64,000 nt of DNA from Burkholderiales bacterium (GTDB taxonomy: Bacteria > Pseudomonadota > Gammaproteobacteria > Burkholderiales > SG8-39): contig DATGGA010000064.1 in NCBI GenBank assembly GCA_035308765.1, forward strand, positions 39,310 through 103,309, read 5' to 3'. Under the pieces are notes generated by a model that worked only from the letters and a program-made list of their open reading frames with translations, was not told where the DNA came from and made no database searches. This document shows positions 27,909 to 51,087 of the stretch, piece by piece (position 1 is the first letter of the stretch; each line of letters opens with the position of its first letter). Both the position numbers and the translations under genes were made by a program.

Positions 27909-27942
27909 CTGTAACGTTACTGAAATATTGCGCCGCTAGGCT
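27909..27942 (+). promoter_or_regulatory. Pho box plus -10 of pstS promoter
   Basis: CTGTAAC-gtta-CTGAAAT (27909-27926), 10 nt, then TAGGCT (27937-27942). 40 nt upstream of the pstS ATG. Confidence 0.7.
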
Positions 27943-27981
27943 GGCGGGGTTCGCATCATTTCCGTCACAAAAGGACCCCAA

Positions 27982-29025
27982 ATGCTCAAATTCAAATTAG
28001 CGGCGCCGATGCTAGGTCTCGTAGCAGCGGCAAGCTTTTCCCTCTCGGCTCAGGCCGTCGACATCACGGGCGCGGGCGCGACCTTCCCCTATCCGATTTA
28101 CGCCAAGTGGGCGGATGCCTACAAGACGCAGACCGGCACGGGGCTCAATTACCAGTCGATCGGCTCGGGCGGCGGTATCAAGCAGATCAGCGCGAAGACG
28201 GTCGATTTCGGGGCGTCCGACATGCCTCTGACGCCTGCGGACCTGGACAAAGGCGGGCTGATGCAATTTCCCACGGTGATCGGCGGCGATGTTCCCGTCG
28301 TCAACCTCAAGGGCATCGGTCCCGGGCAGATGAAGCTTTCCGGCCCGGTACTGGCAGACATCTTCCTCGGCAAGATCAAGAAGTGGAACGATCCTGCGAT
28401 TGTGTCGTTGAATCCGGGTGTCGCGCTGGGCGCCGTGGACATCAATGTCGTTCATCGTTCGGACGGTTCGGGCACGACTTTCATCTGGACCAACTACCTG
28501 TCCAAAGTCAGCCCCGAGTGGAAATCCGCGGTCGGCGAGGGTACCTCGGTCAACTGGCCGGTGGGCGTGGGCGGCAAGGGCAACGAAGGCGTGGCCTCCT
28601 ACGTGCAGCGCATCGAGGGCTCGATCGGCTACGTCGAGTACGCATACGTGCTGCAGAACAAGATGGCCTACACGCTGGTGAAGAACCGCGACGGAAGTCT
28701 GGTGTCGCCGAGTGCGCAGGGCTTCAAGGCCGCAGCCGCAGGCGCCGACTGGAAAGCGGCGCCCGGGATGTACTTGATCCTCACCGATGCACCTGGAAAA
28801 GACGCTTGGCCGATCGCCGGCGCGACTTTCATCCTGATGCACAAGGTGCAGGAAAAACCGGAGAACGCGAAACAGGTCCTGAAGTTCTTCGATTGGGCCT
28901 ATACGAAGGGTGACAAACTTGCCGAGGAGCTTGATTACGTGCCGCTGCCGGACGCGGTCGTGAAGCTGATCCAGTCCAACTGGAAGTCGCAATTGAAGGA
29001 CGCATCCGGCAAGGCGGTCTACTGA
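27982..29025 (+). CDS. pstS: phosphate ABC transporter substrate-binding protein PstS
   Basis: 347 aa with a signal peptide. Motifs GAGATFPYP and SGGG. Confidence 0.92.
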   Translation: MLKFKLAAPMLGLVAAASFSLSAQAVDITGAGATFPYPIYAKWADAYKTQTGTGLNYQSIGSGGGIKQISAKTVDFGASDMPLTPADLDKGGLMQFPTVIGGDVPVVNLKGIGPGQMKLSGPVLADIFLGKIKKWNDPAIVSLNPGVALGAVDINVVHRSDGSGTTFIWTNYLSKVSPEWKSAVGEGTSVNWPVGVGGKGNEGVASYVQRIEGSIGYVEYAYVLQNKMAYTLVKNRDGSLVSPSAQGFKAAAAGADWKAAPGMYLILTDAPGKDAWPIAGATFILMHKVQEKPENAKQVLKFFDWAYTKGDKLAEELDYVPLPDAVVKLIQSNWKSQLKDASGKAVY

Positions 29026-29054
29026 GCGCTTTGCACCAAGTCATTGATCTGGAA

Positions 29055-29081
29055 GGGGGCGGTGCAAACCGCCCCCTTTTT
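29055..29081 (+). terminator. intrinsic terminator/attenuator between pstS and pstC
   Basis: gggggcgg-tgcaaa-ccgccccc followed by ttttt. Perfect 8-bp GC stem. Confidence 0.7.
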
Positions 29082-29130
29082 GATCGCGCCGCCGCCGCGC
29101 CCCCTTACAATTTACCCGCTTGAAACCTCG

Positions 29131-30144
29131 ATGCCCGCCGCTACGCTGACCAGGTCCGAAGCCGCCACGAGCGCTTCCGCGATGGATGAATCCCAGAGTC
29201 CGCGCCGCCTGCGATCCGCTTCTTGGGCGGACCCCGCCTTCGAGTGGTTGACGCGGGTATTCGCGTTCGTCGTATTCAGCCTGCTCGTGGCGATCCTCGC
29301 CTCGCTCGTCGTCGGCAGCCAGATCACGCTGCAGAAATACGGCTTCTCGTTCATCTGGTCCTCGGACTGGGACCCTGTCAAGGAGCGGTTCGGCGCGCTG
29401 GTGCCGATCTACGGCACGGTCGTGACTTCGCTGATCGCGATGCTGATCGGCGTGCCGGTCAGCTTCGGCATCGCACTGTTCCTCACGGAACTCTCGCCGG
29501 CTTGGCTCAAGCGTCCGCTCGGCACGGCTATCGAGCTGCTCGCCGCGATTCCTTCGATCATCTACGGGATGTGGGGCCTGTTCGTGTTTGCGCCGCTGTT
29601 CCAGGAGCACGTGCAGCCGGCCCTCGTCAATACGCTGGGCGCGGTGCCATTCTTCGGCGCGCTGTTCGCGGGGCCGTCGATCGGCATCGGCATGCTCACC
29701 GCGGGCCTGATCCTCTCGGTCATGGTGATCCCGTTCATTACCGCGGTGATGCGTGATGTGTTCGAAATCGTGCCGGCGATGCTCAAGGAGTCGGCCTATG
29801 GTCTGGGCGCCACCACCTGGGAAGTCGTCTGGCGCGTGGTGCTGCCTTACACAAAGGTGGGCGTCATCGGCGGCATCATGCTGGGCCTCGGGCGGGCGCT
29901 CGGGGAAACGATGGCGGTGACCTTCGTCATCGGCAACGCGCATCATCTCGCGGTCTCCCTGAATGCGCCCGGCAACAGCATCGCTTCGGCGCTCGCCAAT
30001 GAGTTCACCGAAGCGGTCGGCGACATCTACTTCTCGGCGCTGATCGAGCTCGGCTTGATCCTGTTCCTTATCACTACGATCGTCCTGGCGTTGGCCAAAC
30101 TCCTGTTGATGCGGCTGGCGCGCCGCGAGGGGACCGGGGCATGA
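29131..30144 (+). CDS. pstC: phosphate ABC transporter permease PstC
   Basis: Polytopic protein with the EAA-like permease loop ([11 protein letters not shown]). ATG at 29131 lies downstream of the attenuator hairpin. Confidence 0.9.
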
Positions 30145-31019
30145 GCGCCGTAATGCAGGTTGCAAGCGCGATCAGCCCGGGAAACCGGCTCTACCGTTCG
30201 CGCAAGCGCGTCAATTTATTGCTGCTCGCGATATCCAGCCTCGCGCTCGCGTTCGGCCTGTTCTGGCTGGTATGGATCCTCGGCACGCTGTTGTACGAGG
30301 GTGGCTATGCGCTTGCCCACGCGACCTTGTACTACCAGATGACGCCGCCCCCGGGGGCAGATGGCGGTCTCGCCAACGCGATCGTCGGCAGTCTCGTCAT
30401 GGTGGCAGCGGGGACCTTGATCGGCACGCCGGTCGGCATCCTCGCCGGCACTTATCTCGCGGAATACGGCCGGGGCGGCTGGCTGGCGGGAGCGACGCGC
30501 TTCCTGAACGACGTGCTCCTCTCCGCGCCTTCGATCGTGATCGGCCTGTTCGTGTACTCGGTCTATGTCGCCAGGGTGAAGCACTTTTCAGCCTGGGCGG
30601 GCGCGATGGCGCTGGCGCTGCTGGTCATCCCGGTAGTGGTGCGAACGACCGACGACATGCTCAAGCTGGTGCCGCACACGCTGCGCGAGGCCGCGATGGC
30701 CTTGGGTTGCCCCGCGTGGAAGATGATCGTCTCGGTCACCTACAGGGCGGCGCGCACCGGCATACTCACCGGCGTCCTGCTGGCGATCGCGCGCATAAGC
30801 GGTGAAACCGCGCCGCTGTTGTTTACCGCGCTCAACAACCAGTTCTGGTCGAACAACATGAACGCGCCGATGGCGAACCTGCCGGTGGTGATCTTCCAGT
30901 TCGCCATGAGCCCCTACGAGGACTGGCACCGGCTCGCCTGGGGCGGCGCGGCGCTGATCACGCTCGCGGTGCTGGTGCTCAATATCCTCGCGCGAGCGTT
31001 GTTCCGGAAGACCGACTGA
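30141..31019 (+). CDS. pstA: phosphate ABC transporter permease PstA
   Basis: 292 aa polytopic protein with motif [14 protein letters not shown]. Start overlaps the pstC stop. Confidence 0.9.
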
Positions 31020-31027
31020 AACAAGGA

Positions 31028-31885
31028 ATGCAATCCATGGAAGCAGCCAGTTCGGCAGCCACTGCAAGGCCGGCGATTCATACCGCGCTGCGCACAGACC
31101 GCGAGGCGGAACTCAGCGCGCCGTCCGAGCTGAAAGCCAAGCTCAGGATAAAAGGCCTGAATTTCTACTACGGCGGATTTCATGCGATCAAGAATGTCAC
31201 CATGGACATCCCCGAGCGCAAGGTGACCGCATTCATCGGTCCTTCGGGCTGCGGCAAGTCCACGCTGCTCAGGACGTTCAACCGCATGTACGCGCTTTAC
31301 CCGGACCAGCGCGCGGAGGGCGAGATCCTGATGGACGGCGAGAATCTCGTCACGACCAGGCAGGACGTGTCGCTGATCCGCGCCAAGATCGGCATGGTGT
31401 TCCAGAAGCCGACGCCGTTCCCGATGTCGATCTACGACAACATCGCCTTCGGCGTGCGCCTGTTCGAGAGCCTGAGCAAGCGCGAGATGGACGAGCGGGT
31501 CGAGTGGGCGCTGGGCCGCGCGGCGATCTGGAACGAGGTCAAGGACAAGCTGTCGCAGAGCGGCCAGAGCCTGTCGGGCGGCCAGCAGCAGCGCCTGTGC
31601 ATAGCGCGCGGCATCGCCATCAGGCCCGAAGTGCTGCTGCTGGACGAGCCGTGCTCGGCGCTCGACCCGATTTCGACCGCCAAGGTCGAGGAGTTGATCC
31701 ACGAGCTGAAAACCGACTACACCGTGGTAATCGTGACGCACAACATGCAGCAGGCGGCTCGCGTCTCGGACTACACCGCATACATGTACCTGGGCGAACT
31801 CATCGAATACGACGTCACCGACACGATCTTCATCAAGCCCAAAAAGACGGCGACCGAGGATTACATCACCGGCAGATTCGGCTAG
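31028..31885 (+). CDS. pstB: phosphate ABC transporter ATP-binding protein PstB
   Basis: Walker [10 protein letters not shown], signature LSGGQQQR, Walker B LLLDEP. The alternative ATG at 31037 has better SD spacing. Confidence 0.93.
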
Positions 31886-31893
31886 GAGGCGGC

Positions 31894-32604
31894 ATGGGCA
31901 TCACCGAGCACATTTCCAAGCAGTTCGAAGCCGACCTCGATACCACGCGCACGCGCGTGCTGCAGATGGGCGGCCTGGTCGAGGCGCAGATCCTCGCCGC
32001 GATCCAGGCCTTCGCCACCGGCGAACCGGCGCTGATCGCGCAGGTGATCGAAAACGACACGCGCGTCAACGGCTACGAGGTCGCCATCGACGGCGCCATC
32101 AACCACATCGTGGTCAAGCGCCAGCCGGCGGCCAGCGACCTGCGCCTGATCATGGCGATCAGCAAGATCGTCACCGATCTCGAGCGCATCGGCGACGAAG
32201 CCGAGAAAATCGCCCGCATGTCCAAGCGCATCCACGAGCAGGGCGCGCATCCCGCGCAGCGTTTCCCGGCGATCCGCCACGCGTCGCAGATTGCGGTGAA
32301 GATGCTGCGCCAGTCGCTGGACTCCTTCGCGCGCCTGGATGTCAACAGCGCGGCCGAGGTGCTCAAGGAAGATACGGCGATCGACGACGAATTCCGCTCG
32401 GTGCTGCGGCAACTGATCACCTACATGATGGAAGACCCGCGTACCATTTCGGCCTCGCTGGAAACCGTTTGGGTGGCCAAGGCGATCGAGCGCATCGGCG
32501 ACCATGCCAAGAATATCGCCGAGCAGGTCATCTACATCGTCAGAGGAACCGACGTGCGCCATACCTCGTTCGAAGACGTCGAACGGGAACTGTCCAAGGA
32601 ATAA
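31894..32604 (+). CDS. phoU: phosphate signalling regulator PhoU
   Basis: 236 aa from the ATG at 31894, preceded by aggagg. Duplicated PhoU repeats (ERIGD twice). Confidence 0.9.
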   Translation: MGITEHISKQFEADLDTTRTRVLQMGGLVEAQILAAIQAFATGEPALIAQVIENDTRVNGYEVAIDGAINHIVVKRQPAASDLRLIMAISKIVTDLERIGDEAEKIARMSKRIHEQGAHPAQRFPAIRHASQIAVKMLRQSLDSFARLDVNSAAEVLKEDTAIDDEFRSVLRQLITYMMEDPRTISASLETVWVAKAIERIGDHAKNIAEQVIYIVRGTDVRHTSFEDVERELSKE

Positions 32605-32624
32605 AGGGAGGCAGCGGCGCCGCC

Positions 32625-33332
32625 ATGCCCGCAACGGTACTCATCGTAGAAGACGAGCCGGCGATCCTCGAGCTGATCGCCGTCAACCTGGAACATGCCG
32701 GCTTCGAGACCTTGCGGGCGAAAAGCGGCGAGGAAGCCGTGCGCCTGCTCGGCGACGTCCTGCCCGACCTGGTGCTGCTGGACTGGATGCTGCCGGGGCA
32801 GTCGGGACTTGCACTGGCGCGGCGCCTGCGCGGCGACTCGCGCACCAGGGAAATGCCGCTGATATTTCTCACCGCGCGCGCCGACGAGCCCGACAAGCTC
32901 GCGGGCCTGGAGGCGGGCGCCGACGACTACATCACCAAGCCGTTTTCCACCAAGGAGCTGGTGGCGCGCATCCGCGCGGTGCTGCGCCGGAAAAAGCCCC
33001 AGCACGGCGAAATGCCGGTCGAGATCTCGGGACTGAGGCTCGACCCCGCTGCGCATCGCGTCACGGGCAACGGCCTGGTGTTGTCCTTCGGCCCGACCGA
33101 GTTCCGCCTGCTGCATTACTTGATGACGCACCCCAACCGCGTCTACTCGCGCACCCAGCTGCTGGACGAGGTCTGGGGCGACCACGTCTTCATCGAGGAA
33201 CGCACCGTGGATGTCCATATCCGCAGGCTGCGTCAGGGCCTCACGCCCAGCGGCCACGACGCGCTGATCGAGACCGTACGTGGCAGCGGCTATGCCTTGC
33301 GGGCCGAAGCGGCGGTCATGAGCCGCGGCTGA
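32625..33332 (+). CDS. phoB: phosphate regulon response regulator PhoB
   Basis: Receiver domain (VLIVEDE...DLVLLDWMLPG) plus an OmpR/PhoB winged-helix domain (RTVDVHIRRLR). ATG at 32625 follows agggagg. Confidence 0.9.
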   Translation: MPATVLIVEDEPAILELIAVNLEHAGFETLRAKSGEEAVRLLGDVLPDLVLLDWMLPGQSGLALARRLRGDSRTREMPLIFLTARADEPDKLAGLEAGADDYITKPFSTKELVARIRAVLRRKKPQHGEMPVEISGLRLDPAAHRVTGNGLVLSFGPTEFRLLHYLMTHPNRVYSRTQLLDEVWGDHVFIEERTVDVHIRRLRQGLTPSGHDALIETVRGSGYALRAEAAVMSRG

Positions 33333-33353
33333 CGGGCTCGCTGCGGGCGTGAC

Positions 33354-34592
33354 GTGAGCTGGCTCGAAATCGGTCTGGCACTGCTGGTGGCCGGTCTTGC
33401 GGCAGCGCTCTGGCTGAACCTGCGCGAATTCCGAAAATTGCGGCACTGGGCATCGCAGTCCAGGCTCAGCGACCCGCCGGAAGCCGCAGGCGCCTGGGGC
33501 GAAGTGTTCAATCTGCTGCACCGGCATCGGCGCGCCATGCTCAAGCGGAGGCGCGAACTTGCGCAGCTGATGGTCCGCTCGCGCCGCGGCGCGCAGGCGC
33601 TGCCCTACGGCGTCGCCGTGCTGGACGCCGACTATCGCCTCGACTGGTGCAACGACGCCGCGCGCGAACACCTGGGCGTGGACCCGGAGCGGGACCGCAA
33701 GCAGCCGGTCGTCAACATGGTGCGCGCACCCGAATTCGTCGAATACCTGCGCGCGGCGGATTTCTCCGAGCCGGTCCGGCTGGGCTCGCCGGGCGGCAGG
33801 CGCACGCTGTCGCTGCAGATCGTTTCCTTCGGCGACGAAGAACACCTGCTGCTGTCCCAGGACGTCACGGGTGCCGTGCAGGTAGAGGCGATGCGGCGCG
33901 ATTTCGTCGCCAACGTCTCGCACGAACTGCGCACGCCTCTTACGGTGCTGGCAGGATTCCTGGAGACCATCCAGGACCTGAAGCTGGACGCCTCGCGCGT
34001 GCGCGACTACGTCGGCCTGATGGCGCCCCAGGCCGAGCGCATGAAGCACCTGATAGACGACCTGCTCACGCTTTCCGCGCTGGAACATGCGCCGCCGCCG
34101 CCCGACGCCGAGCGCATCGCCCTGCGACCGCTGTTGCAGCGGGTGCGCGCCGAGGCCGAGGCACTGTCGAGCGGCAAGCATCGCATAATGCTGGAAGTGG
34201 CGGGCGAGCATGACCTGCTCGGCGCCGAGAGCGAGATCGCCAGCGCATTCGTCAACCTGGTGTCCAACGCGGTGCGCTACACGGCTGCCGGCGGGGAAAT
34301 CCGCCTGCTCTGGCATTCGACCGATGGCGGCGCGGAGTTCTCCGTAGAGGACACCGGTATCGGCATCGACCCAGAGCATCTGCCGCGCCTTACCGAGCGC
34401 TTCTACCGCGTGGACCGCGGCCGCTCGCGCGAGACCGGAGGCACCGGCCTAGGCTTGTCGATCGTGAAGCATGCGCTGGCGCGGCACCAGGGCACGCTGC
34501 TGATCGACAGCGCGCCGGGCAAGGGCAGCCGCTTCACCGCGCGCTTCCCGGCAGCGCGGCTTGGCCCGGTGGCGCAAAAAATCCCGGGCTGA
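33354..34592 (+). CDS. phoR: phosphate regulon sensor histidine kinase PhoR
   Basis: GTG start. N-terminal TM helix, PAS-like region, H-box FVANVSHELRTPL, and ATPase N/G boxes. Confidence 0.87.
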   Translation: MSWLEIGLALLVAGLAAALWLNLREFRKLRHWASQSRLSDPPEAAGAWGEVFNLLHRHRRAMLKRRRELAQLMVRSRRGAQALPYGVAVLDADYRLDWCNDAAREHLGVDPERDRKQPVVNMVRAPEFVEYLRAADFSEPVRLGSPGGRRTLSLQIVSFGDEEHLLLSQDVTGAVQVEAMRRDFVANVSHELRTPLTVLAGFLETIQDLKLDASRVRDYVGLMAPQAERMKHLIDDLLTLSALEHAPPPPDAERIALRPLLQRVRAEAEALSSGKHRIMLEVAGEHDLLGAESEIASAFVNLVSNAVRYTAAGGEIRLLWHSTDGGAEFSVEDTGIGIDPEHLPRLTERFYRVDRGRSRETGGTGLGLSIVKHALARHQGTLLIDSAPGKGSRFTARFPAARLGPVAQKIPG

Positions 34593-34594
34593 CC

Positions 34595-35047
34595 ATGGAT
34601 CTCATTCTCTGGCGTCACGCTGACGCGGAACCCGGCAGCCGCGATCTCGAGCGCAAGCTCACCGCCAGGGGCCGCAAGCAGGCCGAAAGGATGGCCAAGT
34701 GGCTGGTCGCGCGGCTGCCGGGCCGCTATACGGTGCTGGTGAGTCCCGCGCGCCGCGCGCGCGAGACCGCCGATGCGCTGGCCATTCGCTACAGGATCGT
34801 CGAGCGGCTTGCGCCCGGCGCGGCGCCGGGAGACATTTTGAAGGACGCCGGCTGGCCGTCGCACAAGGGCGCGGTGGTTGTCGTCAGCCACCAGCCGGAC
34901 CTGGGCCAGGTCGCGGCGCTGCTCGCTTCCGGCAGCGTGGCCGACTGGTCGGTGAAAAAGGGCGGCCTGTGGTGGCTGAGCAACCGCGAGCGCGGCGGCA
35001 AGATCCAGGTGGTGGTGCGCGCAGTGCTCGCGCCCGACCTGATCTAG
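34595..35047 (+). CDS. sixA: SixA-type phosphohistidine phosphatase
   Basis: 150 aa histidine-phosphatase fold (LILWRHADAE...VSPARRARETA). Confidence 0.7.
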   Translation: MDLILWRHADAEPGSRDLERKLTARGRKQAERMAKWLVARLPGRYTVLVSPARRARETADALAIRYRIVERLAPGAAPGDILKDAGWPSHKGAVVVVSHQPDLGQVAALLASGSVADWSVKKGGLWWLSNRERGGKIQVVVRAVLAPDLI

Positions 35048-36566: not shown

Positions 36567-36620
36567 CGCGGAGGAAAGCTTACACCCTGTGGATAACTCG
36601 GCAAATTACGGATTTGTGCG

Positions 36621-36654
36621 GTTTCACACCATTGCAACATTTGTCGTGTAGGCT
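36621..36654 (+). promoter_or_regulatory. Pho box plus -10 of ppk promoter
   Basis: GTTTCAC-acca-TTGCAAC (36621-36638), 10 nt, then TAGGCT (36649-36654). Same -10 hexamer as pstS. Confidence 0.55.
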
Positions 36655-36692
36655 ACTCTACTAAGAGGTCGCAATCCCCCTGCGGTTCCCAG

Positions 36693-39258: not shown

Positions 39259-39279
39259 CCTGTCCGCATGGAACAGCGA

Positions 39280-41833: not shown

Positions 41834-42676
41834 TTAAGGTTCGGGCAGGCGCATCAGCGGCTCGCCCATGCGGATGAGCGAACCTGCCGTCACATTTCCG
41901 CAAAGTGCGAAGCCGCGCGGCGCGAACACGAGAATCGTCGAGCCATGCTGGAACCAGCCCATTTCCTCGCCCTTGGCGAAGCGCGCATCGCAATGGATCA
42001 CGTTCGGACCGCGATAGCGCAGGTGCAGCAGCACGTCGAGAAAATGCAGGCGGATGCTCGCGACGAGAACCGCGGCCACCGGGACCAGCAGGATTTCGTG
42101 TCCGCCCGCCTCGAGCCTGGTGCGCAACAGGGCGCGCTCGTTCTTGCAGAACAGTTTCTCGACGCGCCGCAGCGCGATCGGGTTCACGTTCCAGGTATCG
42201 CCCGAGAAGTAGGTTACCTGCCCGATCCGGCAGTCGTGCGGCGCGTGGAAGCGGTGGTACATGCTCGAAGTGATCCGCAGCGTGGCGTAGGTCGCGTCGC
42301 GGAAATCGTCCGCGAGCGTGGCGCTGCCGACCAGGTCCAGTATCGTGTAGGGGAAGCCCTTCGCCTGGATCAACTGGCCGTCCTCGACCCGCCCGCAGGC
42401 GCCGACGATCGCGTCGCAGGGACTGGCCAGCAGCGCCGGATCGGGATCCACCGGCCGCGCGCCGTGCTTCAGCTCGCGGATGAAGCAGTCGTGCAGGCTG
42501 CGAAAGCTGGCCTGCTTCGCTTCATCGAGGCGCAGGTCCGCGAACAGCCGCCAGGCCGCGAGCGACAGATCGCGCACCAGCGGCAGTTCGAGCTGGCTGA
42601 ACCAACCCATGAAGCGCGTAAACGCGTGCCGGGGAATGCGGTTGGTGATGAGGAAATTGAGGTCTTCCGTCACCAT
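41834..42676 (-). CDS. phosphatidylserine decarboxylase-family (pyruvoyl-dependent) proenzyme
   Basis: 280 aa with the self-cleavage motif GST in WFQHGSTILVF. N-terminal LITNRIPR. YHRFHAP motif. Confidence 0.8.
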   Translation of the reverse strand: MVTEDLNFLITNRIPRHAFTRFMGWFSQLELPLVRDLSLAAWRLFADLRLDEAKQASFRSLHDCFIRELKHGARPVDPDPALLASPCDAIVGACGRVEDGQLIQAKGFPYTILDLVGSATLADDFRDATYATLRITSSMYHRFHAPHDCRIGQVTYFSGDTWNVNPIALRRVEKLFCKNERALLRTRLEAGGHEILLVPVAAVLVASIRLHFLDVLLHLRYRGPNVIHCDARFAKGEEMGWFQHGSTILVFAPRGFALCGNVTAGSLIRMGEPLMRLPEP

Positions 42677-42700
42677 GCTGTAACCCGGGGGCGGTAAACA
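42667..42700 (+). promoter_or_regulatory. Pho box plus -10 upstream of class-III aminotransferase (overlaps PSD-like start codon)
   Basis: CCGTCAC-catg-CTGTAAC (42667-42684), 10 nt, then TAAACA (42695-42700). The spacer 'catg' contains the minus-strand ATG of the PSD-like gene. Confidence 0.5.
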
Positions 42701-42708
42701 GGCCGCAA

Positions 42709-44358: not shown

Positions 44359-44359
44359 A

Positions 44360-44968
44360 TCAGCCGTGCTGCCGGTGCGGCATCGGGTCGATCAGCTCGC
44401 CGCGCAAGAGATACATCGGCGCCTTGTGATAGAGCTTCAGGTCGTGGAACGGGTCGGTCAGGATCTTTATCATCCATACCAGCCCCGTCTTTACGTCCCG
44501 GATGAAGAACAGGTGCACCGTGCGGAACAGCAGGCCGCCTACACCCAGCGCGAGCCAGATCATGGCCAAGTGATGCACGTAGTCGTAGGTCGTGACCGGT
44601 AGCTCGAACAGGCCGAACAGCGTGGGATCGGCAAGCAGCGGCAGCGGGGCCAGCGCCCAGGCCACGTACAGCAGTATCTTGCGGCGCAAGTTGTATCCGA
44701 TCTTGATTTCCTCCTTGTACTCGTGCGTCGCCTGATTGACGTGGTCGTAACCCTTCGGCTCGAAGAAAAAGTGTCCCGACTGGCGCGCGGTCATTGCGAT
44801 CAGCCAGCCGATCAATGCAGCGGCGACCGGATAAACAAACAGCATCGCGTAGGCGCACAGGAAGCTCGCCGCGCTGACGAAATGCAGCGACTGGTTGATC
44901 CGGCTGTGGTGATAGTAGCGGTGATCGTCCCAGCGCTGGATTTGGAGGGTGCGGAGAATTTCTTTCAT
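44360..44968 (-). CDS. polytopic membrane protein, possible DUF962/Mpo1-like (HxxxxNxxxH)
   Basis: 202 aa from the ATG at 44968, preceded by gaggag. About 4-5 TM segments. The motif YHHSRINQSLHF resembles the Mpo1-like family signature; this assignment is tentative. Confidence 0.5.
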   Translation of the reverse strand: MKEILRTLQIQRWDDHRYYHHSRINQSLHFVSAASFLCAYAMLFVYPVAAALIGWLIAMTARQSGHFFFEPKGYDHVNQATHEYKEEIKIGYNLRRKILLYVAWALAPLPLLADPTLFGLFELPVTTYDYVHHLAMIWLALGVGGLLFRTVHLFFIRDVKTGLVWMIKILTDPFHDLKLYHKAPMYLLRGELIDPMPHRQHG

Positions 44969-45012
44969 CTTGTCTCCTCGGCGGTTAAGTCGGAAACCTG
45001 ACAACGGGCCCG

Positions 45013-45068
45013 AGGATACGGGGGAATTGCGACAGTTCCGTAAAACGGAAATGACAAATCGACGACAG
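45013..45068 (-). promoter_or_regulatory. tandem Pho boxes (4 phased heptamers) plus -10 upstream of membrane protein 44360..44968
   Basis: Minus strand reads CTGTCGT-cgat-TTGTCAT-ttcc-GTTTTAC-ggaa-CTGTCGC (45068-45029), 10 nt, then TATCCT (45018-45013). Confidence 0.6.
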
Positions 45069-45079
45069 GGGGGCCAGTG

Positions 45080-45135
45080 CCGTCGCAATTCATTCACGCG
45101 GCGGTCATCGGGGCGTCGCGCGGCGGATCCATCAT
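45080..45135 (+). promoter_or_regulatory. tandem Pho-box-like array (4 phased heptamers) plus -10 upstream of GT4 glycosyltransferase B
   Basis: CCGTCGC-aatt-CATTCAC-gcgg-CGGTCAT-cggg-GCGTCGC (45080-45119), 10 nt, then CATCAT (45130-45135). Same layout as the GT4-A promoter, but the heptamers are weaker. Confidence 0.45.
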
Positions 45136-45141
45136 CGCGCC

Positions 45142-46407
45142 ATGCGAGCCGGGATGCGCGACGACCAGGCACCGATCCAGATCGAGCAGCTGGGCGGCGT
45201 TCGCCGATCGCTGCGCGTCGCGGTGGTGACCGAAACCTACCCGCCGGAAATCAACGGCGTTGCGCTGACCGCCGCGCGCTTCGTTGAAGGCCTGCGCCAG
45301 CGCGGTCACCAGATTCAACTCATCCGCCCGCGGCAAGACAGTACCGACCACGCGGATGCCGACGACCGTTTCCAGGAAGTGCTCATGCGGGGCGTCGCGA
45401 TTCCGCGCTATCCGAATCTGAGGATGGGCCTCCCGGCCAAGCGCGCACTCGAGCAGCTCTGGACTTACTGCCGCCCCGACGTCGTGCACATAGTCACCGA
45501 GGGCCCTCTGGGCTGGTCGGCCCAGCGGGCCGCCCTCAAGCTGCGCATCCCCGCAGTCTCGGATTTCCGCACCAATTTCCACGCCTACAGCCGGCACTAC
45601 GGCATCGGCTGGCTCGGGAAGCCGATCCTCGCCTACCTGCGCAAATTCCACAACCGTACCTTGTGCACCATGGTGCCAACGGAATCCATGCGCGCCGACC
45701 TCGCTGCGCTCGGCTTCTATCGCCTGCGCGTAGTGGCGCGCGGAGTGGACACGGCGCTTTTCGACCCGGCGCGACGCAGCACGGCGCTACGCGCCAGCTG
45801 GGGTGCGGCGCCGGAAGACCCCGTGCTGCTGCATGTAGGCCGCCTCGCGCCGGAAAAGAATCTCGATGCGCTGCTTGCCGCGTTCGAGGCGGCTCGCGAG
45901 CGTGCGCCGCGCGCCAGGCTGGTGCTGGTCGGCGACGGCCCGTCCCGGGGCGAAATGCAGGCGCGCTGCCCGGAAGCGATCCTCGCCGGGACGCGGCGCG
46001 GCGAGGAACTTGCCGCGCACTACGCTTCGGGGGACATGTTCCTGTTTCCGAGCCTGACGGAGACCTACGGCAACGTGACCGTGGAGGCGCTGGCGAGCGG
46101 CCTGGCCGTGATCGCCTACGACTACGCCGCCGCAGCGGCGCATATCCGTCACGGGCATAACGGCCTGCTGGCGGATTTCGACAACACGGCGGAATTCGCT
46201 GCGCTCGCGGCCGGGCTGGTCACAAATCTGTCCCAGATTCGGGCGCTGGCCGTCAAAGCGCGGCAGGAAGTGCTGGCGCACGACTGGGGGCGCGTGGTGC
46301 AGCAGCTCGAAGGCGTTCTGGAGGTCGCGGCCGGTACGGGCAGCGGACGGTTCTACGGCAGTTCCGGTGGCCGCCGCGCGCGCAGTCCCATGCCCCAGAG
46401 CACGTAG
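45142..46407 (+). CDS. GT4-family glycosyltransferase B (paralogue of 39280..40446)
   Basis: Collinear with GT4-A over its whole length (VVTETYPPEINGVA, PRYPNLRMGLP, TDFRTNFHAYS, LAPEKN, EX7E ETYGNVTVEALASG). Start is ATG 45142 or 45154. Confidence 0.8.
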   Translation: MRAGMRDDQAPIQIEQLGGVRRSLRVAVVTETYPPEINGVALTAARFVEGLRQRGHQIQLIRPRQDSTDHADADDRFQEVLMRGVAIPRYPNLRMGLPAKRALEQLWTYCRPDVVHIVTEGPLGWSAQRAALKLRIPAVSDFRTNFHAYSRHYGIGWLGKPILAYLRKFHNRTLCTMVPTESMRADLAALGFYRLRVVARGVDTALFDPARRSTALRASWGAAPEDPVLLHVGRLAPEKNLDALLAAFEAARERAPRARLVLVGDGPSRGEMQARCPEAILAGTRRGEELAAHYASGDMFLFPSLTETYGNVTVEALASGLAVIAYDYAAAAAHIRHGHNGLLADFDNTAEFAALAAGLVTNLSQIRALAVKARQEVLAHDWGRVVQQLEGVLEVAAGTGSGRFYGSSGGRRARSPMPQST

Positions 46408-47114
46408 CCCGAGACGGCATAGGCCAGGCACAGCAGGAACAGTACGACCGGCGGGCGAAGCGAGACCACCGCAAGGCCGGCGACGAACGCCAGCATCACC
46501 CAGAAAGGCACCGCCCGCTTGAGGTTGAATTCCTTGAAGCTGTAGAACGGCACGTTGGTCACCATGGTGATGCCTGCGTACATCGTGAACACCCAGGCGA
46601 TCATGCTCAGCCACAATTCGCGGTCGATGCCGAAGTCGTCGAATACCCACACCAGGCCCGCCAGCAGCGCAGCGGCCGCCGGACTCGGGATGCCCTGGAA
46701 GTAGCGTCTATCGACGACATCCATGTTTACGTTGAAACGCGCCAGCCGCAGCGCGGCGCCGGCGCAGTATACGAAGGCGGCGATCCAGCCGAGCTTGCCC
46801 ATGCCTTTCAGCGCCCAGACGTACATGACGAGCGCAGGCGCGGCGCCGAATGAAACCATGTCCGACAGGCTGTCGTACTGTGCGCCAAACTCGCTTTGCG
46901 TATGCGTGAGCCGCGCGATGCGGCCGTCCAGCCCGTCGAGAACCATGGCGACGAAGATGGCGATCGCCGCAAGTTCGAAATGTTCGTTCATCGCCTGCAC
47001 GATGGCGTAGAAGCCGGAGAACAGCGAAGCGGTGGTGAAAAGGTTCGGCAGCAGATAGATGCTGCGCCGGCGGAACAGGCTCAGGCTGCGGCCGCCCTCC
47101 TCGAAGTCTCCCAT
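46353..47114 (-). CDS. pssA: CDP-alcohol phosphatidyltransferase, PssA-like (CDP-diacylglycerol--serine O-phosphatidyltransferase type II)
   Basis: Perfect D-G-x2-A-R-x8-G-x3-D-x3-D motif (DGLDGRIARLTHTQSEFGAQYDSLSD). N-terminal YLLPNLFT. Polytopic. Confidence 0.8.
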   Translation of the reverse strand: MGDFEEGGRSLSLFRRRSIYLLPNLFTTASLFSGFYAIVQAMNEHFELAAIAIFVAMVLDGLDGRIARLTHTQSEFGAQYDSLSDMVSFGAAPALVMYVWALKGMGKLGWIAAFVYCAGAALRLARFNVNMDVVDRRYFQGIPSPAAAALLAGLVWVFDDFGIDRELWLSMIAWVFTMYAGITMVTNVPFYSFKEFNLKRAVPFWVMLAFVAGLAVVSLRPPVVLFLLCLAYAVSGYVLWGMGLRARRPPELP

Positions 47115-47148
47115 CGCATATCCCTGTTTTGCCGGGGTGACGGGCGAG

Positions 47149-47183
47149 ACCCTACAGGGAGAGTTGCGACAATCTGATGACAG
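47149..47183 (-). promoter_or_regulatory. Pho box plus -10 upstream of pssA-like gene
   Basis: Minus strand reads CTGTCAT-caga-TTGTCGC (47183-47166), 11 nt, then TAGGGT (47154-47149). Confidence 0.55.
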
Positions 47184-47191
47184 CGCCGCAA

Positions 47192-47225
47192 GATTAACGA
47201 TCGTGTCATATCCGGAGACTAGCCT
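47192..47225 (+). promoter_or_regulatory. Pho box plus -10 upstream of PlcP/LpxH-like metallophosphoesterase
   Basis: GATTAAC-gatc-GTGTCAT (47192-47209), 10 nt, then TAGCCT (47220-47225). Divergent from the pssA-like box only 9 bp away. Confidence 0.55.
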
Positions 47226-47264
47226 AGCAGCTCAATTGCTTACGCCGGGAACCTGAGGTTATTT

Positions 47265-48083
47265 GTGCCGCACGTCCGCGCCATCTTCCTCTCGGACATC
47301 CACCTCGGCACGCCCGCCTGCCAGGCCGGGCGGCTGCTCGAATTCCTCAAGGCGCACGAGTCGGAGTACCTGTTCCTGGTCGGCGACATCATCGATTTCT
47401 GGGCGATGCAGCGCCGCGGCGTGTACTGGTCTGCCGAGCAGAACACCGTGGTGCAGAAGATCCTCAAGCGCGCGCGCCACGACGTCAAGGTGATCTTCGT
47501 GCCCGGCAACCACGACGAAGCCGCGCGCGAGCACACCGGCACCTCGTTCGGCAACATCCGCGTCGAGCGCGACTATGTGCACCTGGCCGCCGACGGCAGG
47601 CGCTACCTGCTGATCCATGGCGACGAGTTCGACCAGGTCACGCGCTATCACCGGTGGCTGGCGATCCTTGGCGACCACGCATACTCGATGGTCGTGCGCC
47701 TGAACATGTGGCTGTCCTGGCTGCGACGCACGCTCGGTATTCCCGGCTACTGGTCGCTCTCGGGCTACGTGAAGAAGAAGGTGAAGAGGGCGGTCAGCTT
47801 CGTCTTCGACTTCGAGGATTCGGTTCTGCGCCACGCGAGGGAGCGCGGCGTGGACGGGGTCATCTGCGGCCACATCCATTCCGCGACGATCCGCGACCAC
47901 GGCGGCATCACCTACATCAATTGCGGCGACTGGGTGGACAGCTGCACCGCGATCGTCGAAGATGAGAACGGCTCCATGGCGCTCGTGCACTGGGGGGGCG
48001 AAGACGAAATAGCGGAGCGCCTTCCTCCTTCGGCGGCGAGCTCCGCTCTGAATGAAGCCAGGGAAGACGCGGTCTTATGGTGA
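47265..48083 (+). CDS. LpxH-like calcineurin-type metallophosphoesterase, candidate PlcP-type phospholipase C
   Basis: GTG start after gagg. Metallophosphoesterase motifs SDIHLG, GDIIDFW, PGNHDE, IHGDEFD, GHIH. Its Pho-box promoter and neighbouring DAG-related genes favour a lipid-remodelling role over housekeeping LpxH. Confidence 0.75.
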   Translation: MPHVRAIFLSDIHLGTPACQAGRLLEFLKAHESEYLFLVGDIIDFWAMQRRGVYWSAEQNTVVQKILKRARHDVKVIFVPGNHDEAAREHTGTSFGNIRVERDYVHLAADGRRYLLIHGDEFDQVTRYHRWLAILGDHAYSMVVRLNMWLSWLRRTLGIPGYWSLSGYVKKKVKRAVSFVFDFEDSVLRHARERGVDGVICGHIHSATIRDHGGITYINCGDWVDSCTAIVEDENGSMALVHWGGEDEIAERLPPSAASSALNEAREDAVLW

Positions 48084-48433
48084 CGCTCGATATGTTCCGC
48101 AATGCCAAAGACGCGAGGCCCTACCTGGCCGGCGAGGCGATATTCCGCGCCGGCGACCGGGGCGACAACATGTACGTGGTGGTAGAGGGTGAAGTGAGCG
48201 TTTCGGCCAACGGCAGGGAACTTGAGCTGCTCGGACCCGGCGGCGTATTCGGCGAGATTGCGCTGATCGACAACGGACCGAGGTCGGCTGACGCGATCGC
48301 GGTAACGGATTGCCGCGTGGTCCCCATAGACGAGAACTGGTTCAAGTTCCTCGTGCAGCAAACGCCGTATTTCTCGCTCCAGATCATGCGCGTGATGGCC
48401 GACCGGCTGCGGCGCAGCATGCCCGCGCCATAA
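48077..48433 (+). CDS. stand-alone cyclic nucleotide-binding domain protein
   Basis: 118 aa with the CAP effector domain pattern (IFRAGDRGDNMYVVVEGEV...GGVFGEIALID..PRSADA). ATG overlaps the upstream stop (ATGGTGA). Confidence 0.65.
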   Translation: MVTLDMFRNAKDARPYLAGEAIFRAGDRGDNMYVVVEGEVSVSANGRELELLGPGGVFGEIALIDNGPRSADAIAVTDCRVVPIDENWFKFLVQQTPYFSLQIMRVMADRLRRSMPAP

Positions 48434-48624
48434 AAAATTGGCGGCTCCTGCGGGCCGCCAAAACCAACTCTCAAGTGGCGCTGAGGCAAGCCAGTGCCTC
48501 GGGAGCCTTGCGGACTGCCAGTTTCCCTTGCCGTGCTTGTGCGTGCGCTTCTTGGCTGCGTGCCCGGCCGAGAGACCAGCTGGAGGACCTTGAAATCATT
48601 CACGTCTGACTCTTATTTGCAGCG

Positions 48625-48658
48625 CTGTCATGGAGCGGTAATCCATGGTGGGTAGCGT
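48625..48658 (+). promoter_or_regulatory. Pho box plus -10 upstream of EAL-CBS-GGDEF gene
   Basis: CTGTCAT-ggag-CGGTAAT (48625-48642), 10 nt, then TAGCGT (48653-48658). 40 nt upstream of the GTG at 48698. Confidence 0.5.
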
Positions 48659-48697
48659 GGAAAGCGATCGTCAGTCCAATCCGAATACGAGTTCACG

Positions 48698-50572
48698 GTG
48701 CTCAATCAAGCCTTCGAGCAAAGCCTTTTTTTGCGGCTCCGGCATCACGGTGCCTCGGGGCAGGCCGTGGACAATGACCTGCCGCGCGAACCGGAACGGC
48801 GCCTGCTCGGCGAATGCCTGACACAGGGCAGACTGCGGACGGTGTTCCAGCCGATCCTTGATTTGCGGCGGGGTTCCGTATTCGCCCATGAGGCGCTGTC
48901 GCGCGGTCCGGCCGGCACGGCGTTCGAATCGGCGCTGTCGATATTCCAGCTCGCGCGCGAGCACGGCTTCTCCAGCGACCTGGAACTGGTCGCGGTGCGC
49001 GGTGCTCTCCAGCGGTTCGCCGCCCTGGGCGCGGAAGGCAAGCTGTTCGTGAACTTCAGCGCGCTTGCGCTCGCGGAACGCCGCGTCGGGGGCGGGATCA
49101 TCCTCGAATACCTGCGGGGTTGCGGGCTCTCGCCCAAGCAGGTGGTGATCGAGCTTTCCGAAAACCATGCGATCGTCGATGCCTCGCCGGCATGGGCGGC
49201 GCTGCTCCAGTGCAGGAAGGAAGGATTCGAAATCGCCATCGACGACCTGGGTGAAGGATTCGCCAGCCTGCGCCTGTGGTCGGAATTGCGCCCGGAGTAC
49301 GTCAAGTTGGACCGGCATTTCATCCACGGCATCCATAGCGACCCCGTAAAGCTGCAGATCGCGCGCGCGATCCAGCAGATCGCGCAGGTCGCGGGCGGCG
49401 CCGTGATCGCCGAGGGTATCGAGGAGACGGCCGATTTCCAGGTGGTGCGCGATCTCGGCATCAGCTACTGCCAGGGCTACCTGATCGGCTACCCTGCCGC
49501 GGCTCCGGACGAGGCTGCGCCGGTCGAATTGTGGCAACGCTTGTCGCTCGAACCGGTGCTGGCGTTTCCGCTTCCCGGCCACAGCGTCAATCGGGTCACC
49601 GCCAGGAAACTGCTGAAGCGCGTCGATCCGGTTTCGCCGGCGACGGAAAACGACGTCGTCTACGCGCGTTTCGAGAGCGAGCCCGATCTTCAGGTCATAC
49701 CAGTGGTCGACGGGGCGGTGCCGCGCGGCCTGATCAACCGCAACTCGATCATCGACCGCTTCGCGCGGCCTTACCGGCGAGAACTGTTCGGCCGCAAGCC
49801 TTGCGCGGCATTCATGAACGGCAAGCCCCTGATCGTCGACGCCGATATCAGCATCCAGAAAATCAGCATGATGCTGACCGAGGGCGACGACCACGCGCTT
49901 TACGACGGCTTCATCATTGTCGAAGGAGGCCGCTACGCCGGCGTCGGTACCAGCCAGAATCTGATCCGCGAGATCAATGCCCAGCAGATCGTCGCCGCCC
50001 GTTACGCCAATCCCCTGACGCTGCTGCCGGGGAACGTGCCGATCGCCGAGCACATTTCGCGGCTTCTGACGCAGGGGCGCGATTTCGTCGCCTGCTATGC
50101 GGATCTCGACAATTTCAAGCCCTTCAACGACGTCTACGGCTATCACCGCGGCGACGAAGTGATCCAGCTCGCGGCGCGCGCCCTTGCCGACGCCTGCGAT
50201 CCGCAACTCGACTTCTGCGGCCACGTCGGCGGCGACGATTTCGTCGTCGTCATGCAGAGCGCGGACTGGGAAACCCGCTGCCAGCGCGCGCTGACGACCT
50301 TCGGCGAGCGCGTCACGGCGCTGTTCTCTAGCGAGGACCGCGAGCGCGGCGGCTTCCTCGCGGAAGACCGGCGCGGCGAGAAGCAGAAATTCGGCCTGAC
50401 CAGCCTGTCCATCGGCGTCGTTCCGGTGGAGCGCGCCACTTTCAACACGCATTCGGAGGTGGCGGCGGCGGCGACCGAGGCGAAGAAGATGGCCAAGCGC
50501 GAGCCCGGCAACGCGCTGTTCGTCGAACGTCGCCGCTACCCGACGAGCTCGCTCAGGCCGCTCGCCGAGTAA
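48698..50572 (+). CDS. c-di-GMP signalling protein: EAL phosphodiesterase - CBS pair - GGDEF-like (GGDDF) domain
   Basis: EAL motifs (HEALSRG, DDLGEGFASL, EGIE). A central CBS pair. The C-terminal cyclase-like domain has DLDNFKPFND and HVGGDDFVVV. Confidence 0.8.
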   Translation: MLNQAFEQSLFLRLRHHGASGQAVDNDLPREPERRLLGECLTQGRLRTVFQPILDLRRGSVFAHEALSRGPAGTAFESALSIFQLAREHGFSSDLELVAVRGALQRFAALGAEGKLFVNFSALALAERRVGGGIILEYLRGCGLSPKQVVIELSENHAIVDASPAWAALLQCRKEGFEIAIDDLGEGFASLRLWSELRPEYVKLDRHFIHGIHSDPVKLQIARAIQQIAQVAGGAVIAEGIEETADFQVVRDLGISYCQGYLIGYPAAAPDEAAPVELWQRLSLEPVLAFPLPGHSVNRVTARKLLKRVDPVSPATENDVVYARFESEPDLQVIPVVDGAVPRGLINRNSIIDRFARPYRRELFGRKPCAAFMNGKPLIVDADISIQKISMMLTEGDDHALYDGFIIVEGGRYAGVGTSQNLIREINAQQIVAARYANPLTLLPGNVPIAEHISRLLTQGRDFVACYADLDNFKPFNDVYGYHRGDEVIQLAARALADACDPQLDFCGHVGGDDFVVVMQSADWETRCQRALTTFGERVTALFSSEDRERGGFLAEDRRGEKQKFGLTSLSIGVVPVERATFNTHSEVAAAATEAKKMAKREPGNALFVERRRYPTSSLRPLAE

Positions 50573-50750
50573 CGCCCGGCGCACGAGATTTTCGCCGCAC
50601 GCAACAAGCTCCTGCGGGGACAAGGCGCTAGCGATTGAAATTCCAGTGGCGATTTATCTTCTCGCAGCCCGAGCGCTGATTTGCTTGAGGAAACTTTCTT
50701 TCAGGGGAAATTTCGACTCAAGTATTGTCAATGCCCGCAAGGCGATTAAT

Positions 50751-50960
50751 ATGCGCTTGTCAAAACTCTCCCGAGCGATCTCTATGCAAACGCCAAGCCG
50801 CAATCCAGAGCCGCGCGAATTGACCTGGGTCGACTATATCGACAGCCTGAAGCGCCGCGCGTGGGATGAGCGTTTTCCGGGGAAGAAAAGTCCCGGTGCT
50901 TTCGCTGTCCCGGCGCCCGTCGATGGGCTCGCGAAACAGCGCGACCGGCAGATCCAGTAA
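50751..50960 (+). CDS. small hypothetical protein (weak call)
   Basis: 69 aa from the ATG at 50751 within ORF 50646..50960. The 3' two-thirds shows GC3-rich codon use. No recognisable motif. Lies in a lower-GC spacer. Confidence 0.25.
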   Translation: MRLSKLSRAISMQTPSRNPEPRELTWVDYIDSLKRRAWDERFPGKKSPGAFAVPAPVDGLAKQRDRQIQ

Positions 50961-51053
50961 CGCAGGGCGGGAATCCCGGACCGCAGCGGGCACGCGTTGC
51001 GCTGCGGTGACTGGCAATGAACGCCGCCGGTCAAAAATAGGATGCGCAGCGCG

Positions 51054-51087
51054 CAGTCATAAAAGTTTCACGCCGAGCCTCTAGCAT
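51054..51087 (+). promoter_or_regulatory. Pho box plus -10 upstream of phnH-phoD-NPP operon
   Basis: CAGTCAT-aaaa-GTTTCAC (51054-51071), 10 nt, then TAGCAT (51082-51087). The ATG at 51097 lies only 9 nt past the -10. Confidence 0.6.

Follow-up and report, generated by a model that had tools for sequence, protein, structure and literature searches.

The window analyzed here is a stretch of 64,000 nucleotides from an uncultured Burkholderiales bacterium that is represented only by metagenome contigs (contig DATGGA010000064.1, positions 39,310 to 103,309), whose central part, nucleotides 27,909 to 51,087, includes ten promoters with Pho boxes, direct repeats of the kind bound by the response regulator PhoB. 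It is highly likely, with a probability that we put at about 0.85 on the basis of the sequence, that this region represents the core of the bacterium's Pho regulon and that the ten promoters precede ten PhoB-activated units. The functions found downstream of the boxes are phosphate uptake, polyphosphate, synthesis of phosphorus-free lipids, turnover of cyclic di-GMP (c-di-GMP), and phosphoester scavenging. The regulatory genes phoB and phoR, which the original prediction placed in the window, are encoded there together with pstSCAB-phoU, as identified with Pfam. The promoter mechanism is that of the textbook PhoB class, and pst, ppk, phn and phoD are classical Pho genes. To these the region would add conserved members of the regulon, namely a family of EAL-CBS-GGDEF proteins that would tie phosphate stress to c-di-GMP in many proteobacteria, and a triad consisting of psd, an aminotransferase gene and an Mpo1-like gene. 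The region would offer a sequence-level and near-complete map of the core of a Pho regulon for an uncultured lineage of Burkholderiales, where the rule known from E. coli Pho boxes (box, 10 bp, -10) applies unchanged. It also documents a decayed carbon-phosphorus (C-P) lyase operon, the Pho promoter of which has been retained and is predicted to drive phoD at present.

The ten promoters

The sites had been described as 7-nt repeats in an 11-bp register followed by a -10 hexamer, and all ten were located as described, seven that had been fully spelled out by exact pattern search and three by direct reading. Matches were measured in two ways. The a-priori motif was the E. coli sequence CTGTCAT-N4-CTGTCAT with a threshold of at least 10 of 14 matches, which is independent of the window. 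In addition, a leave-one-out score (in bits) was calculated for each promoter from a matrix based on the remaining nine. In the following lines the spacers within the boxes are in lower case, and the distance to the -10 hexamer precedes the hexamer.

27909-27942 (+), pstS promoter: CTGTAAC gtta CTGAAAT, 10 nt, TAGGCT; ATG at 27982; 11.5 bits
36621-36654 (+), ppk promoter: GTTTCAC acca TTGCAAC, 10 nt, TAGGCT; ATG at 36693; 8.5 bits, the weakest box
39203-39242 (+), GT4-A promoter: heptamers GTTTAAC/CTGTAAC/CCGTCAT/GTTTCAT, 10 nt, CATCGT at 39253-39258; 17.8 bits, first rank in the window; overlaps the dgkA stop codon
42667-42700 (+), aminotransferase promoter: CCGTCAC catg CTGTAAC, 10 nt, TAAACA; ATG at 42709; 16.5 bits
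45068-45029 (-), Mpo1-like membrane protein promoter: heptamers CTGTCGT/TTGTCAT/GTTTTAC/CTGTCGC, 10 nt, TATCCT at 45018-45013; 15.8 bits
45080-45119 (+), GT4-B promoter: heptamers CCGTCGC/CATTCAC/CGGTCAT/GCGTCGC, 10 nt, CATCAT at 45130-45135; 12.7 bits
47149-47183 (-), pssA-like promoter: CTGTCAT caga TTGTCGC, 11 nt, TAGGGT; 15.6 bits
47192-47225 (+), PlcP-like promoter: GATTAAC gatc GTGTCAT, 10 nt, TAGCCT; 14.7 bits
48625-48658 (+), EAL-CBS-GGDEF promoter: CTGTCAT ggag CGGTAAT, 10 nt, TAGCGT; 12/14 against the E. coli consensus
51054-51087 (+), 'phnH' (retained phnG) promoter: CAGTCAT aaaa GTTTCAC, 10 nt, TAGCAT; ATG at 51097; 16.2 bits

The spacer between box and -10 hexamer is thus 10 nt at nine sites and 11 nt at the pssA-like gene, and the 26 heptamers yield the consensus (C/T)TGT(C/A)A(C/T). 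A scan for the sigma-70 consensus in the region 36000-52000, which covers nine of the ten sites, found no -35/-10 pair at any of them.

The a-priori motif was found ten times in the non-coding DNA, which makes up 8% of the window, and 15 times in the coding DNA (Fisher 1.2e-5). Nine of the non-coding hits were among the 3332 positions inside the island, as opposed to one among the 6957 non-coding positions elsewhere (P = 2.8e-4), and eight of the ten promoters reach at least 10/14. Base composition does not explain this enrichment, since the G+C content of the non-coding DNA is 62%, near that of the window (about 65% overall, with a range of 62-69%). In the leave-one-out analysis the score of each site was attained by at most 1.3e-4 of the coding positions, equivalent to no more than 0.04 expected occurrences in a 150-nt region when both strands are counted. 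The full matrix, at 10 bits or more, produced 11 hits outside the ten promoters when 11.3 were expected from shuffled DNA; the ten promoters therefore represent the whole excess. Independently of the heptamers, TANNNT is present 10-11 nt past the box at seven of the ten sites, with a chance of 0.0095 per site (binomial P = 8e-13). A composite scan combining at least 9/14 a-priori matches with TANNNT discriminated poorly (4 real hits versus 1.6 in shuffles), and preference was given to the 10/14 threshold and the leave-one-out matrix. The region had also been called unusually dense. Its density was compared with that of the rest of the window and with a few relatives, in which Pho-box promoters are also clustered around pst, ppk, lipid genes and phn, with different gene content. 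The Pho island is a fluid feature of the lineage.

The relatives of the window genes belong to Burkholderiales or unclassified Betaproteobacteria, and most are metagenome-assembled genomes. The sequence is also present on a public contig of 108.5 kb, and L163, a contig from a metagenome of the Joint Genome Institute (JGI) that was retrieved by way of an EAL protein in the same 90% cluster, matches the window at 100% identity. Being from the same organism, L163 adds only independent gene calls by JGI and no evidence of conservation. In other genomes every site recurs at the orthologous promoter, with spacers that vary and heptamers and -10 hexamers that are constrained. In L001 and L002, whose aminotransferases are 91% and 87% identical to that of the window, the heptamers and -10 hexamers are kept and the 4-nt and 10-nt spacers drift at ppk, GT4-A, aminotransferase, Mpo1-like, GT4-B, pssA and PlcP. 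At GT4-B of L001, for example, all three 4-nt spacers differ and the -10 hexamer is CATGAT. The ppk box reads CATTCAT aaaa CTGCAAC, 10 nt, TAGGCT in L002 and CTTTCAT attg CTGCAAC, 10 nt, TAGGCT in L165, and the GT4-A promoter, including CATCGT, is conserved in these same two loci. The boxes of pssA and PlcP are both kept in L001 and L002, and the former is found in L166 as CTGTCAT caaa CCGTCGC, 11 nt, TAGCGT, while the EAL box of L164 is CTGTCAC attg CGGTCAT, 10 nt, TAGCGT. Loci L164-L166 share the promoters of ppk (TAGGCT), the dgkA-adjacent GT4 gene (four heptamers and CATCGT), EAL (TAGCGT), pssA (11-nt spacer, TAGCGT) and phnG, and include further boxes before phnC, phoX, a PHO4 transporter gene and an olsB-like gene. 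The TAnnnT-type hexamers of the close relatives are mostly TAGnnT, occasionally TACnnT or TAAnnT. The -10 hexamer is separated from the ATG by only 8 nt at the aminotransferase promoter and 9 nt at the phnG promoter, in the window as well as in relatives (L001, L002, L164-L166), and the two mRNAs would therefore be leaderless or near-leaderless.

The match at pstS had been offered as the calibrator of the other nine. Taken alone it is a poor one, because it is one of the two weakest sites, but relatives of PstS carry clear boxes: all four loci (L167-L170) have a Pho box, a spacer of 10-11 nt and a TAnnnT-type -10 hexamer; three of them, L167, L168 and L170, combine a 10-nt spacer with the hexamer TA[GC]A[GC]T.

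Wider sets of orthologs were counted with the a-priori consensus only, considering oriented boxes and leaving out the closest relatives, with a chance expectation of 0.07-0.12 per locus. Boxes were found at 57/78 aminotransferase orthologs, 46/61 GT4, 13/25 PlcP and 36/70 Mpo1-like orthologs (a box of at least 12 bits is present at 57/73 of the latter), and at 48/78 orthologs of the EAL protein, which are distant (39-51% identity, G+C content 39-71%). The psd orthologs served as an internal control and had boxes at the level of chance (5/77). A pattern heptamer-4-CTGTCAA-10-TAnAnn recurs at the aminotransferase orthologs, and CAnnAT-type -10 hexamers recur at those of the Mpo1-like membrane protein.

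The layout of the ten promoters is the same as that of the PhoB-activated promoters of E. coli, as had been proposed. The E. coli phoB promoter (NC_000913.3) consists of TTTTCAT aaat CTGTCAT, 10 nt, and CATAAT, a -10 hexamer that starts with C as do CATCGT and CATCAT in the window. The two systems have in common the CTGTCAT-like heptamers in an 11-bp register, two or four per promoter, and a box that ends 10 bp before the -10 hexamer and replaces the -35 element. They differ in that the -10 hexamers of the window are mostly TAGnnT, with some TAnAnn or CAnnnT, and are not TATAAT-like, a feature of the lineage that is also seen in L164-L168, and in that phoBR is joined here to the pst-phoU operon. 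Moreover, the ten promoters are located within 23 kb, whereas those of the E. coli Pho regulon are dispersed over the genome. The PhoB protein of the window, an OmpR-type regulator, shows 56% full-length identity to E. coli PhoB, and its recognition helix (RTVDVHIRRLR) and wing (TVRGxGY) are identical to those of the E. coli protein. PhoR includes PhoR, HisKA and HATPase domains.

Two other candidate sites were considered and not counted. That at 12839-12856 (-), upstream of ftsY, scored 12.4 bits and was taken as a chance match, with no -10 hexamer at the right distance. The other, at 41778-41811 (+), consists of CTGACAT gaac CTGCAAT, 10 nt, and TAGGCC; it is directed antisense into psd, overlaps the start codon and ribosome-binding region of the gene for a 273-amino acid membrane protein, and is kept in L001 and L002, where the 4-nt spacer varies. 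In a wider set of 74 loci, four such sites were found at psd 3' ends when 2.3 were expected, and this eleventh site may be lineage-specific or a chance match.

Proposed regulation and alternative explanations

Under phosphate limitation PhoR would phosphorylate PhoB, and the phosphorylated protein would occupy the two or four CTGTCAT-like heptamers of each promoter, located at the -35 position, as head-to-tail dimers. Bound PhoB would then recruit the sigma-70 RNA polymerase to the -10 hexamer 10-11 bp downstream, near which the transcription start sites are predicted to be located. The effect would be activation rather than repression, and the ten units, with the operon boundaries suggested by the gene arrangement, would be switched on together. 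They are pstSCAB-phoU-phoBR, ppk (possibly with dgkA), GT4-A with PAP2, GT4-B, the PlcP-like unit, the pssA-like, aminotransferase and Mpo1-like genes, the EAL-CBS-GGDEF gene, and the genes behind the former phn promoter (phoD, NPP and those downstream). Since phoB is included in an operon headed by a Pho-box promoter, pstSCAB-phoU-phoBR would be autoregulated, as phoB is in E. coli. The expected net effect is an increase in phosphate uptake and scavenging, the replacement of phospholipids by phosphorus-free lipids, and a decrease in c-di-GMP.

Several points weigh against this interpretation. The hexamers CATCGT, CATCAT and TAAACA depart from TAnnnT, and their role as -10 elements is deduced, although they are conserved in relatives. 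In this genome the ppk and pstS boxes match the motif weakly. For the fetched loci, the positions of gene starts are extrapolations from tblastn alignments, and the P-values for the orthologs are overstated because the genomes counted are phylogenetically related. Finally, according to a report on E. coli (PMC10294691), most PhoB binding sites in that species are intragenic and transcriptionally inert, so that binding would not guarantee regulation.

This last point is among those that favor an alternative that we regard as unlikely but worth some weight, namely that the sites are real PhoB targets of which a minority are inert or act otherwise; the promoters in question would be those of ppk and GT4-B and the near-leaderless ones of the aminotransferase and phn genes. 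One possibility it includes is that the aminotransferase box serves mainly to repress the divergent psd. The ppk box has the lowest leave-one-out score, the heptamers of GT4-B are GC-rich and reach 10-14 bits, and the aminotransferase box overlaps the psd start codon in a psd-aminotransferase control region that is compact in 74 loci (median start-to-start distance, 85 nt). On the other hand, none of the ten sites departs from the activating arrangement, in which 10-11 nt separate the box from a -10 hexamer, and each has a conserved counterpart at the orthologous promoter; two relatives retain the ppk site, and the GT4-B site is kept with spacers that vary. The aminotransferase box points to the aminotransferase gene in 57 of 78 genomes.

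It is quite improbable that the repeats are bound by another response regulator of the OmpR/PhoB family instead of PhoB. An 11-bp periodicity is common in this family and paralogs may exist elsewhere in the genome, but the heptamer consensus is of the PhoB type, with the E. coli a-priori consensus recovering eight of the ten promoters, and the motif is shared by the canonical targets pstS and phnG, both in the window and in relatives. PhoB itself is also favored by its recognition helix, which is identical to that of E. coli, and by the location of phoB within an operon headed by one of the sites. As for chance or compositional matches, such as AT-rich promoter DNA chosen by eye, the sites were picked by inspection and several heptamers agree with the consensus in no more than 3-5 of their 7 nucleotides, but this explanation is hardly credible in view of the 62% G+C content of the non-coding DNA, the distribution of the a-priori hits inside and outside the island, the strongly significant leave-one-out scores and -10 spacing, and the cross-genome conservation with variable spacers.

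The remnant of a C-P lyase operon

The last of the ten promoters had been assigned to phnH. The Pho-box promoter is present, but the gene behind it is not phnH proper; it is an in-frame phnG'-'phnH fusion left by the deletion of a C-P lyase operon. The genes located behind this promoter are as follows (Pfam annotation for those from phoD on).

51097-51714 (+), phnG'-'phnH fusion: about 14 PhnG codons (MFKASERGSAKRR) joined to PhnH from residue 12 onward
51718-53292 (+), phoD
53302-55113 (+), NPP-type phosphodiesterase gene
55114-56253 (+), Rieske oxygenase gene
56213-56650 (+), gene for a glyoxalase-fold protein

The N-terminus of the fusion protein, MFKASERGSAKRR, is that of PhnG. In L164-L166 the sequence C[AG]GTCAT aaaa GTTTCA[CT], 10 nt (varying), TAGCAT, 9 nt, ATG precedes the phnG gene of a complete phnGHIJKLM...phnCDE cluster, and in L164 this intact cluster is located between an EAL gene and a phoD gene that are 87% and 92% identical, respectively, to those of the window. 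A comparison of nucleotides 50573-51714 of the window with 7121-17956 of L164 revealed that about 9.5 kb of the C-P lyase locus are missing, comprising a phnN-like gene, most of phnG, phnI-M, a low-molecular-weight phosphatase gene, phnCDE, and a gene for a 191-amino acid protein. No homologs of PhnI, J, M, D, E or N were found in the window, which does not include a complete phnGHIJKLM core. Because an intact operon follows the same promoter in L164-L166 and the window has no homologs of the six Phn proteins just named, the phnG'-'phnH gene is a deletion remnant. The locus therefore resembles the C-P lyase operon, a canonical member of the Pho regulon, in that its promoter, its first phnG codons and most of its phnH have orthologs in the intact phn operons of L164-L166, but it differs from it by the absence of the phnN-like gene, most of phnG, phnI-M and phnCDE, and without the phn core genes it cannot encode a C-P lyase. 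The genes from phoD to that of the glyoxalase-fold protein probably form one operon in view of their tight spacing, and from this arrangement the retained phn promoter is predicted to drive phoD, the NPP gene and those downstream.

The only promoter resembling the sigma-70 consensus between 36 and 52 kb (TTGTCA, 16 nt, TAATAT; 50725-50962) precedes a 58-amino acid open reading frame (ORF) at 50786-50962. This ORF, which was also called by JGI in L163, sits in the scar of the phn deletion.

Lipid genes, c-di-GMP and the surrounding genes

Two of the Pho-box promoters belong to a triad of genes, psd, aminotransferase and Mpo1-like, that is described here together with an adjacent membrane protein gene.

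40963-41784 (-), 273-amino acid membrane protein
41834-42676 (-), psd, phosphatidylserine decarboxylase family (Pfam and NCBIfam; HGST self-cleavage motif kept)
42709-44358 (+), class-III aminotransferase-fold protein of 549 amino acids (Pfam), with an N-terminal transmembrane helix and an intact pyridoxal phosphate-lysine motif, YGKTLGGG
44360-44968 (-), 202-amino acid Mpo1-like (DUF962) membrane protein, probably a distant member of the family, with several invariant histidines, publicly named 'hypothetical protein'

The best matches of the aminotransferase in the PDB are the aminotransferase domain of MycA and glutamate-1-semialdehyde aminomutases. The MycA domain aminates a beta-keto fatty acyl chain. 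The 202-amino acid protein scores 19.9 bits against PF06127, below the cut-off of 24, and 47 of its 51 orthologs match this family weakly (best E-value 1.5e-5). Loci related to the aminotransferase number at least 597 in a one-genome-per-species collection, and 80 of them were fetched. The triad is present in 74-77 of these 80, which come from Beta-, Alpha- and Gammaproteobacteria. Candidate cultured carriers of the modules among the related loci are Variovorax sp. OV329 (L027), Aquincola agrisoli MAHUQ-54 (L011), Curvibacter gracilis ATCC BAA-807 (L073), Rubrivivax sp. A210 (L036) and Polynucleobacter strains (L057, L060, L061). Its neighbors include an adjacent GT4 gene in 55 loci, PlcP in 22, an MFS transporter in 19 and an olsB-like acyltransferase in seven; in 13 alphaproteobacterial loci a class-I methyltransferase is found. 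The Pho boxes of the triad precede the aminotransferase and Mpo1-like genes and not psd, and neither psd nor the gene for the 273-amino acid protein has an oriented Pho box of its own in the window. PhoB binding could also affect psd, since the aminotransferase box overlaps its start codon within a compact control region. We tentatively propose, with less than even confidence, that the triad, usually located beside a GT4 gene, represents an undescribed PhoB-controlled pathway of membrane-lipid remodeling in which the aminotransferase is switched on at the expense of psd. If so, it would yield a lipid other than the glycolipids, ornithine lipids and betaine lipids already known, for instance one that bears an amine or another modification and is formed under phosphate scarcity. 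No paper describing a psd/aminotransferase/Mpo1-like module was found in the literature searched.

The remaining lipid genes resemble the PlcP-Agt pathway of Sinorhizobium meliloti, SAR11, Pseudomonas aeruginosa and Burkholderia cenocepacia, in that PlcP-like, GT4 and diacylglycerol kinase genes occur together under predicted phosphate-stress control. In B. cenocepacia the plcP-agt-dagK operon is induced by phosphate depletion (10.1101/2023.05.30.542800). The window includes Metallophos, GT4 and DAGK_prokar domains, and the correspondence to PlcP and Agt is one of domain content, the NCBIfam matches of the GT4 proteins being below the cut-off. The genes dgkA, GT4 and PlcP are contiguous in L165 and L167. 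Unlike the PlcP-Agt operon, those of the window are split into the Pho-box units ppk-dgkA, GT4-A with PAP2, GT4-B, and PlcP with a gene for a cyclic nucleotide (cNMP)-binding protein, and they are interleaved with the psd, aminotransferase, Mpo1-like and pssA-like genes, none of which belongs to the pathway as described.

The EAL-CBS-GGDEF protein can be likened, by domain and control only, to RapA, a c-di-GMP phosphodiesterase expressed at low phosphate in Pseudomonas fluorescens (PMC3032545); in both cases an EAL-domain protein is placed under low-phosphate control, which here is predicted. The presence of a box, 10 nt and TAnnnT upstream of orthologs from very different metagenomes (L081-L160) suggests that PhoB control extends to the whole family. 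The CBS domain was marked in the L164 relative by a JGI Pfam assignment that was flagged as faint.

The gene identities are based on Pfam and NCBIfam annotation. Upstream of the Pho region are the housekeeping genes lolB, ispE, tRNA-Gln, prs, rplY and ychF. The order then is fatty-acid desaturase and aldehyde dehydrogenase (-), pstS-pstC-pstA-pstB-phoU-phoB-phoR-histidine phosphatase, ppx (-), ppk-dgkA, and GT4-A with PAP2; in the middle part, the 273-amino acid membrane protein and psd (-), the class-III aminotransferase, the 202-amino acid membrane protein (-), GT4-B, and the pssA-like gene (-); and in the 3' part, PlcP-like with the cNMP-binding protein, EAL-(CBS)-GGDEF, and 'phnH'-phoD-NPP phosphodiesterase-Rieske oxygenase-glyoxalase. 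The genes that have not been listed above are as follows.

27982-29025 (+), pstS (Pfam, as for the pst-pho genes that follow)
29044-30144 (+), pstC
30141-31019 (+), pstA
31028-31885 (+), pstB
about 31900-32604 (+), phoU
32625-33332 (+), phoB
33354-34592 (+), phoR
34595-35047 (+), histidine phosphatase gene
36693-38777 (+), ppk (Pfam)
38843-39208 (+), dgkA (Pfam)
39280-40446 (+), GT4-A glycosyltransferase, start MRIAMVS (Pfam; called by JGI as 388 amino acids in L163)
40433-40966 (+), PAP2 phosphatase (Pfam)
45154-46407 (+), GT4-B glycosyltransferase, 417 amino acids (Pfam; start based on the alignment with L001 and on that called by JGI in L163)
46353-47114 (-), pssA-like CDP-alcohol phosphatidyltransferase, above the NCBIfam pssA cut-off, with the D-G-x2-A-R...D-x3-D motif intact
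47265-48083 (+), PlcP-like metallophosphoesterase (Pfam)
48077-48433 (+), cNMP-binding protein (Pfam)
48698-50572 (+), EAL-(CBS)-GGDEF protein, 624 amino acids, GTG start (Pfam)

The pst-pho genes (27982-35047) are likely one operon; the matrix scan found no internal Pho box of at least 10 bits in it, and its gene order is identical in L168. The dgkA gene may be co-transcribed with ppk. The starts of GT4-A and GT4-B at 39280 and 45154 are both downstream of those of the longest ORFs, as indicated by the JGI calls in L163 and, for GT4-B, by the L001 alignment. The sub-threshold NCBIfam matches of GT4-A were to lipid glycosyltransferases. A terminator-like hairpin is found at 48438-48461, after the cNMP-binding gene; the terminator scan as a whole was at the level of chance (10 hits versus 10.2 expected). 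Rfam and tRNA scans of the window found nothing except tRNA-Gln at 17353-17430.

The fatty-acid desaturase and aldehyde dehydrogenase genes (25349-27856, -) are divergent from pstS, and no Pho box was found pointing at them; the aldehyde dehydrogenase gene keeps the same place beside pstS in L168. Small proteins with a cNMP-binding domain are encoded twice in the window, at 48077-48433 and 21657-22205. The former gene is apparently co-transcribed with the PlcP-like gene, an arrangement kept in L001, L002 and L166. In the intergenic region between the divergent ppx and ppk, a perfect consensus DnaA box, TGTGGATAA (reverse complement of TTATCCACA), is located at 36588-36596; it occurs once in the window, when 0.04 occurrences were expected. 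The DnaA box lies within a block, AGCTTACACCCTGTGGATAAC(T/C)CGGCAA (36570-36606), that is identical in the window, L002 and L165 and is located about 25 nt upstream of the ppk Pho box.

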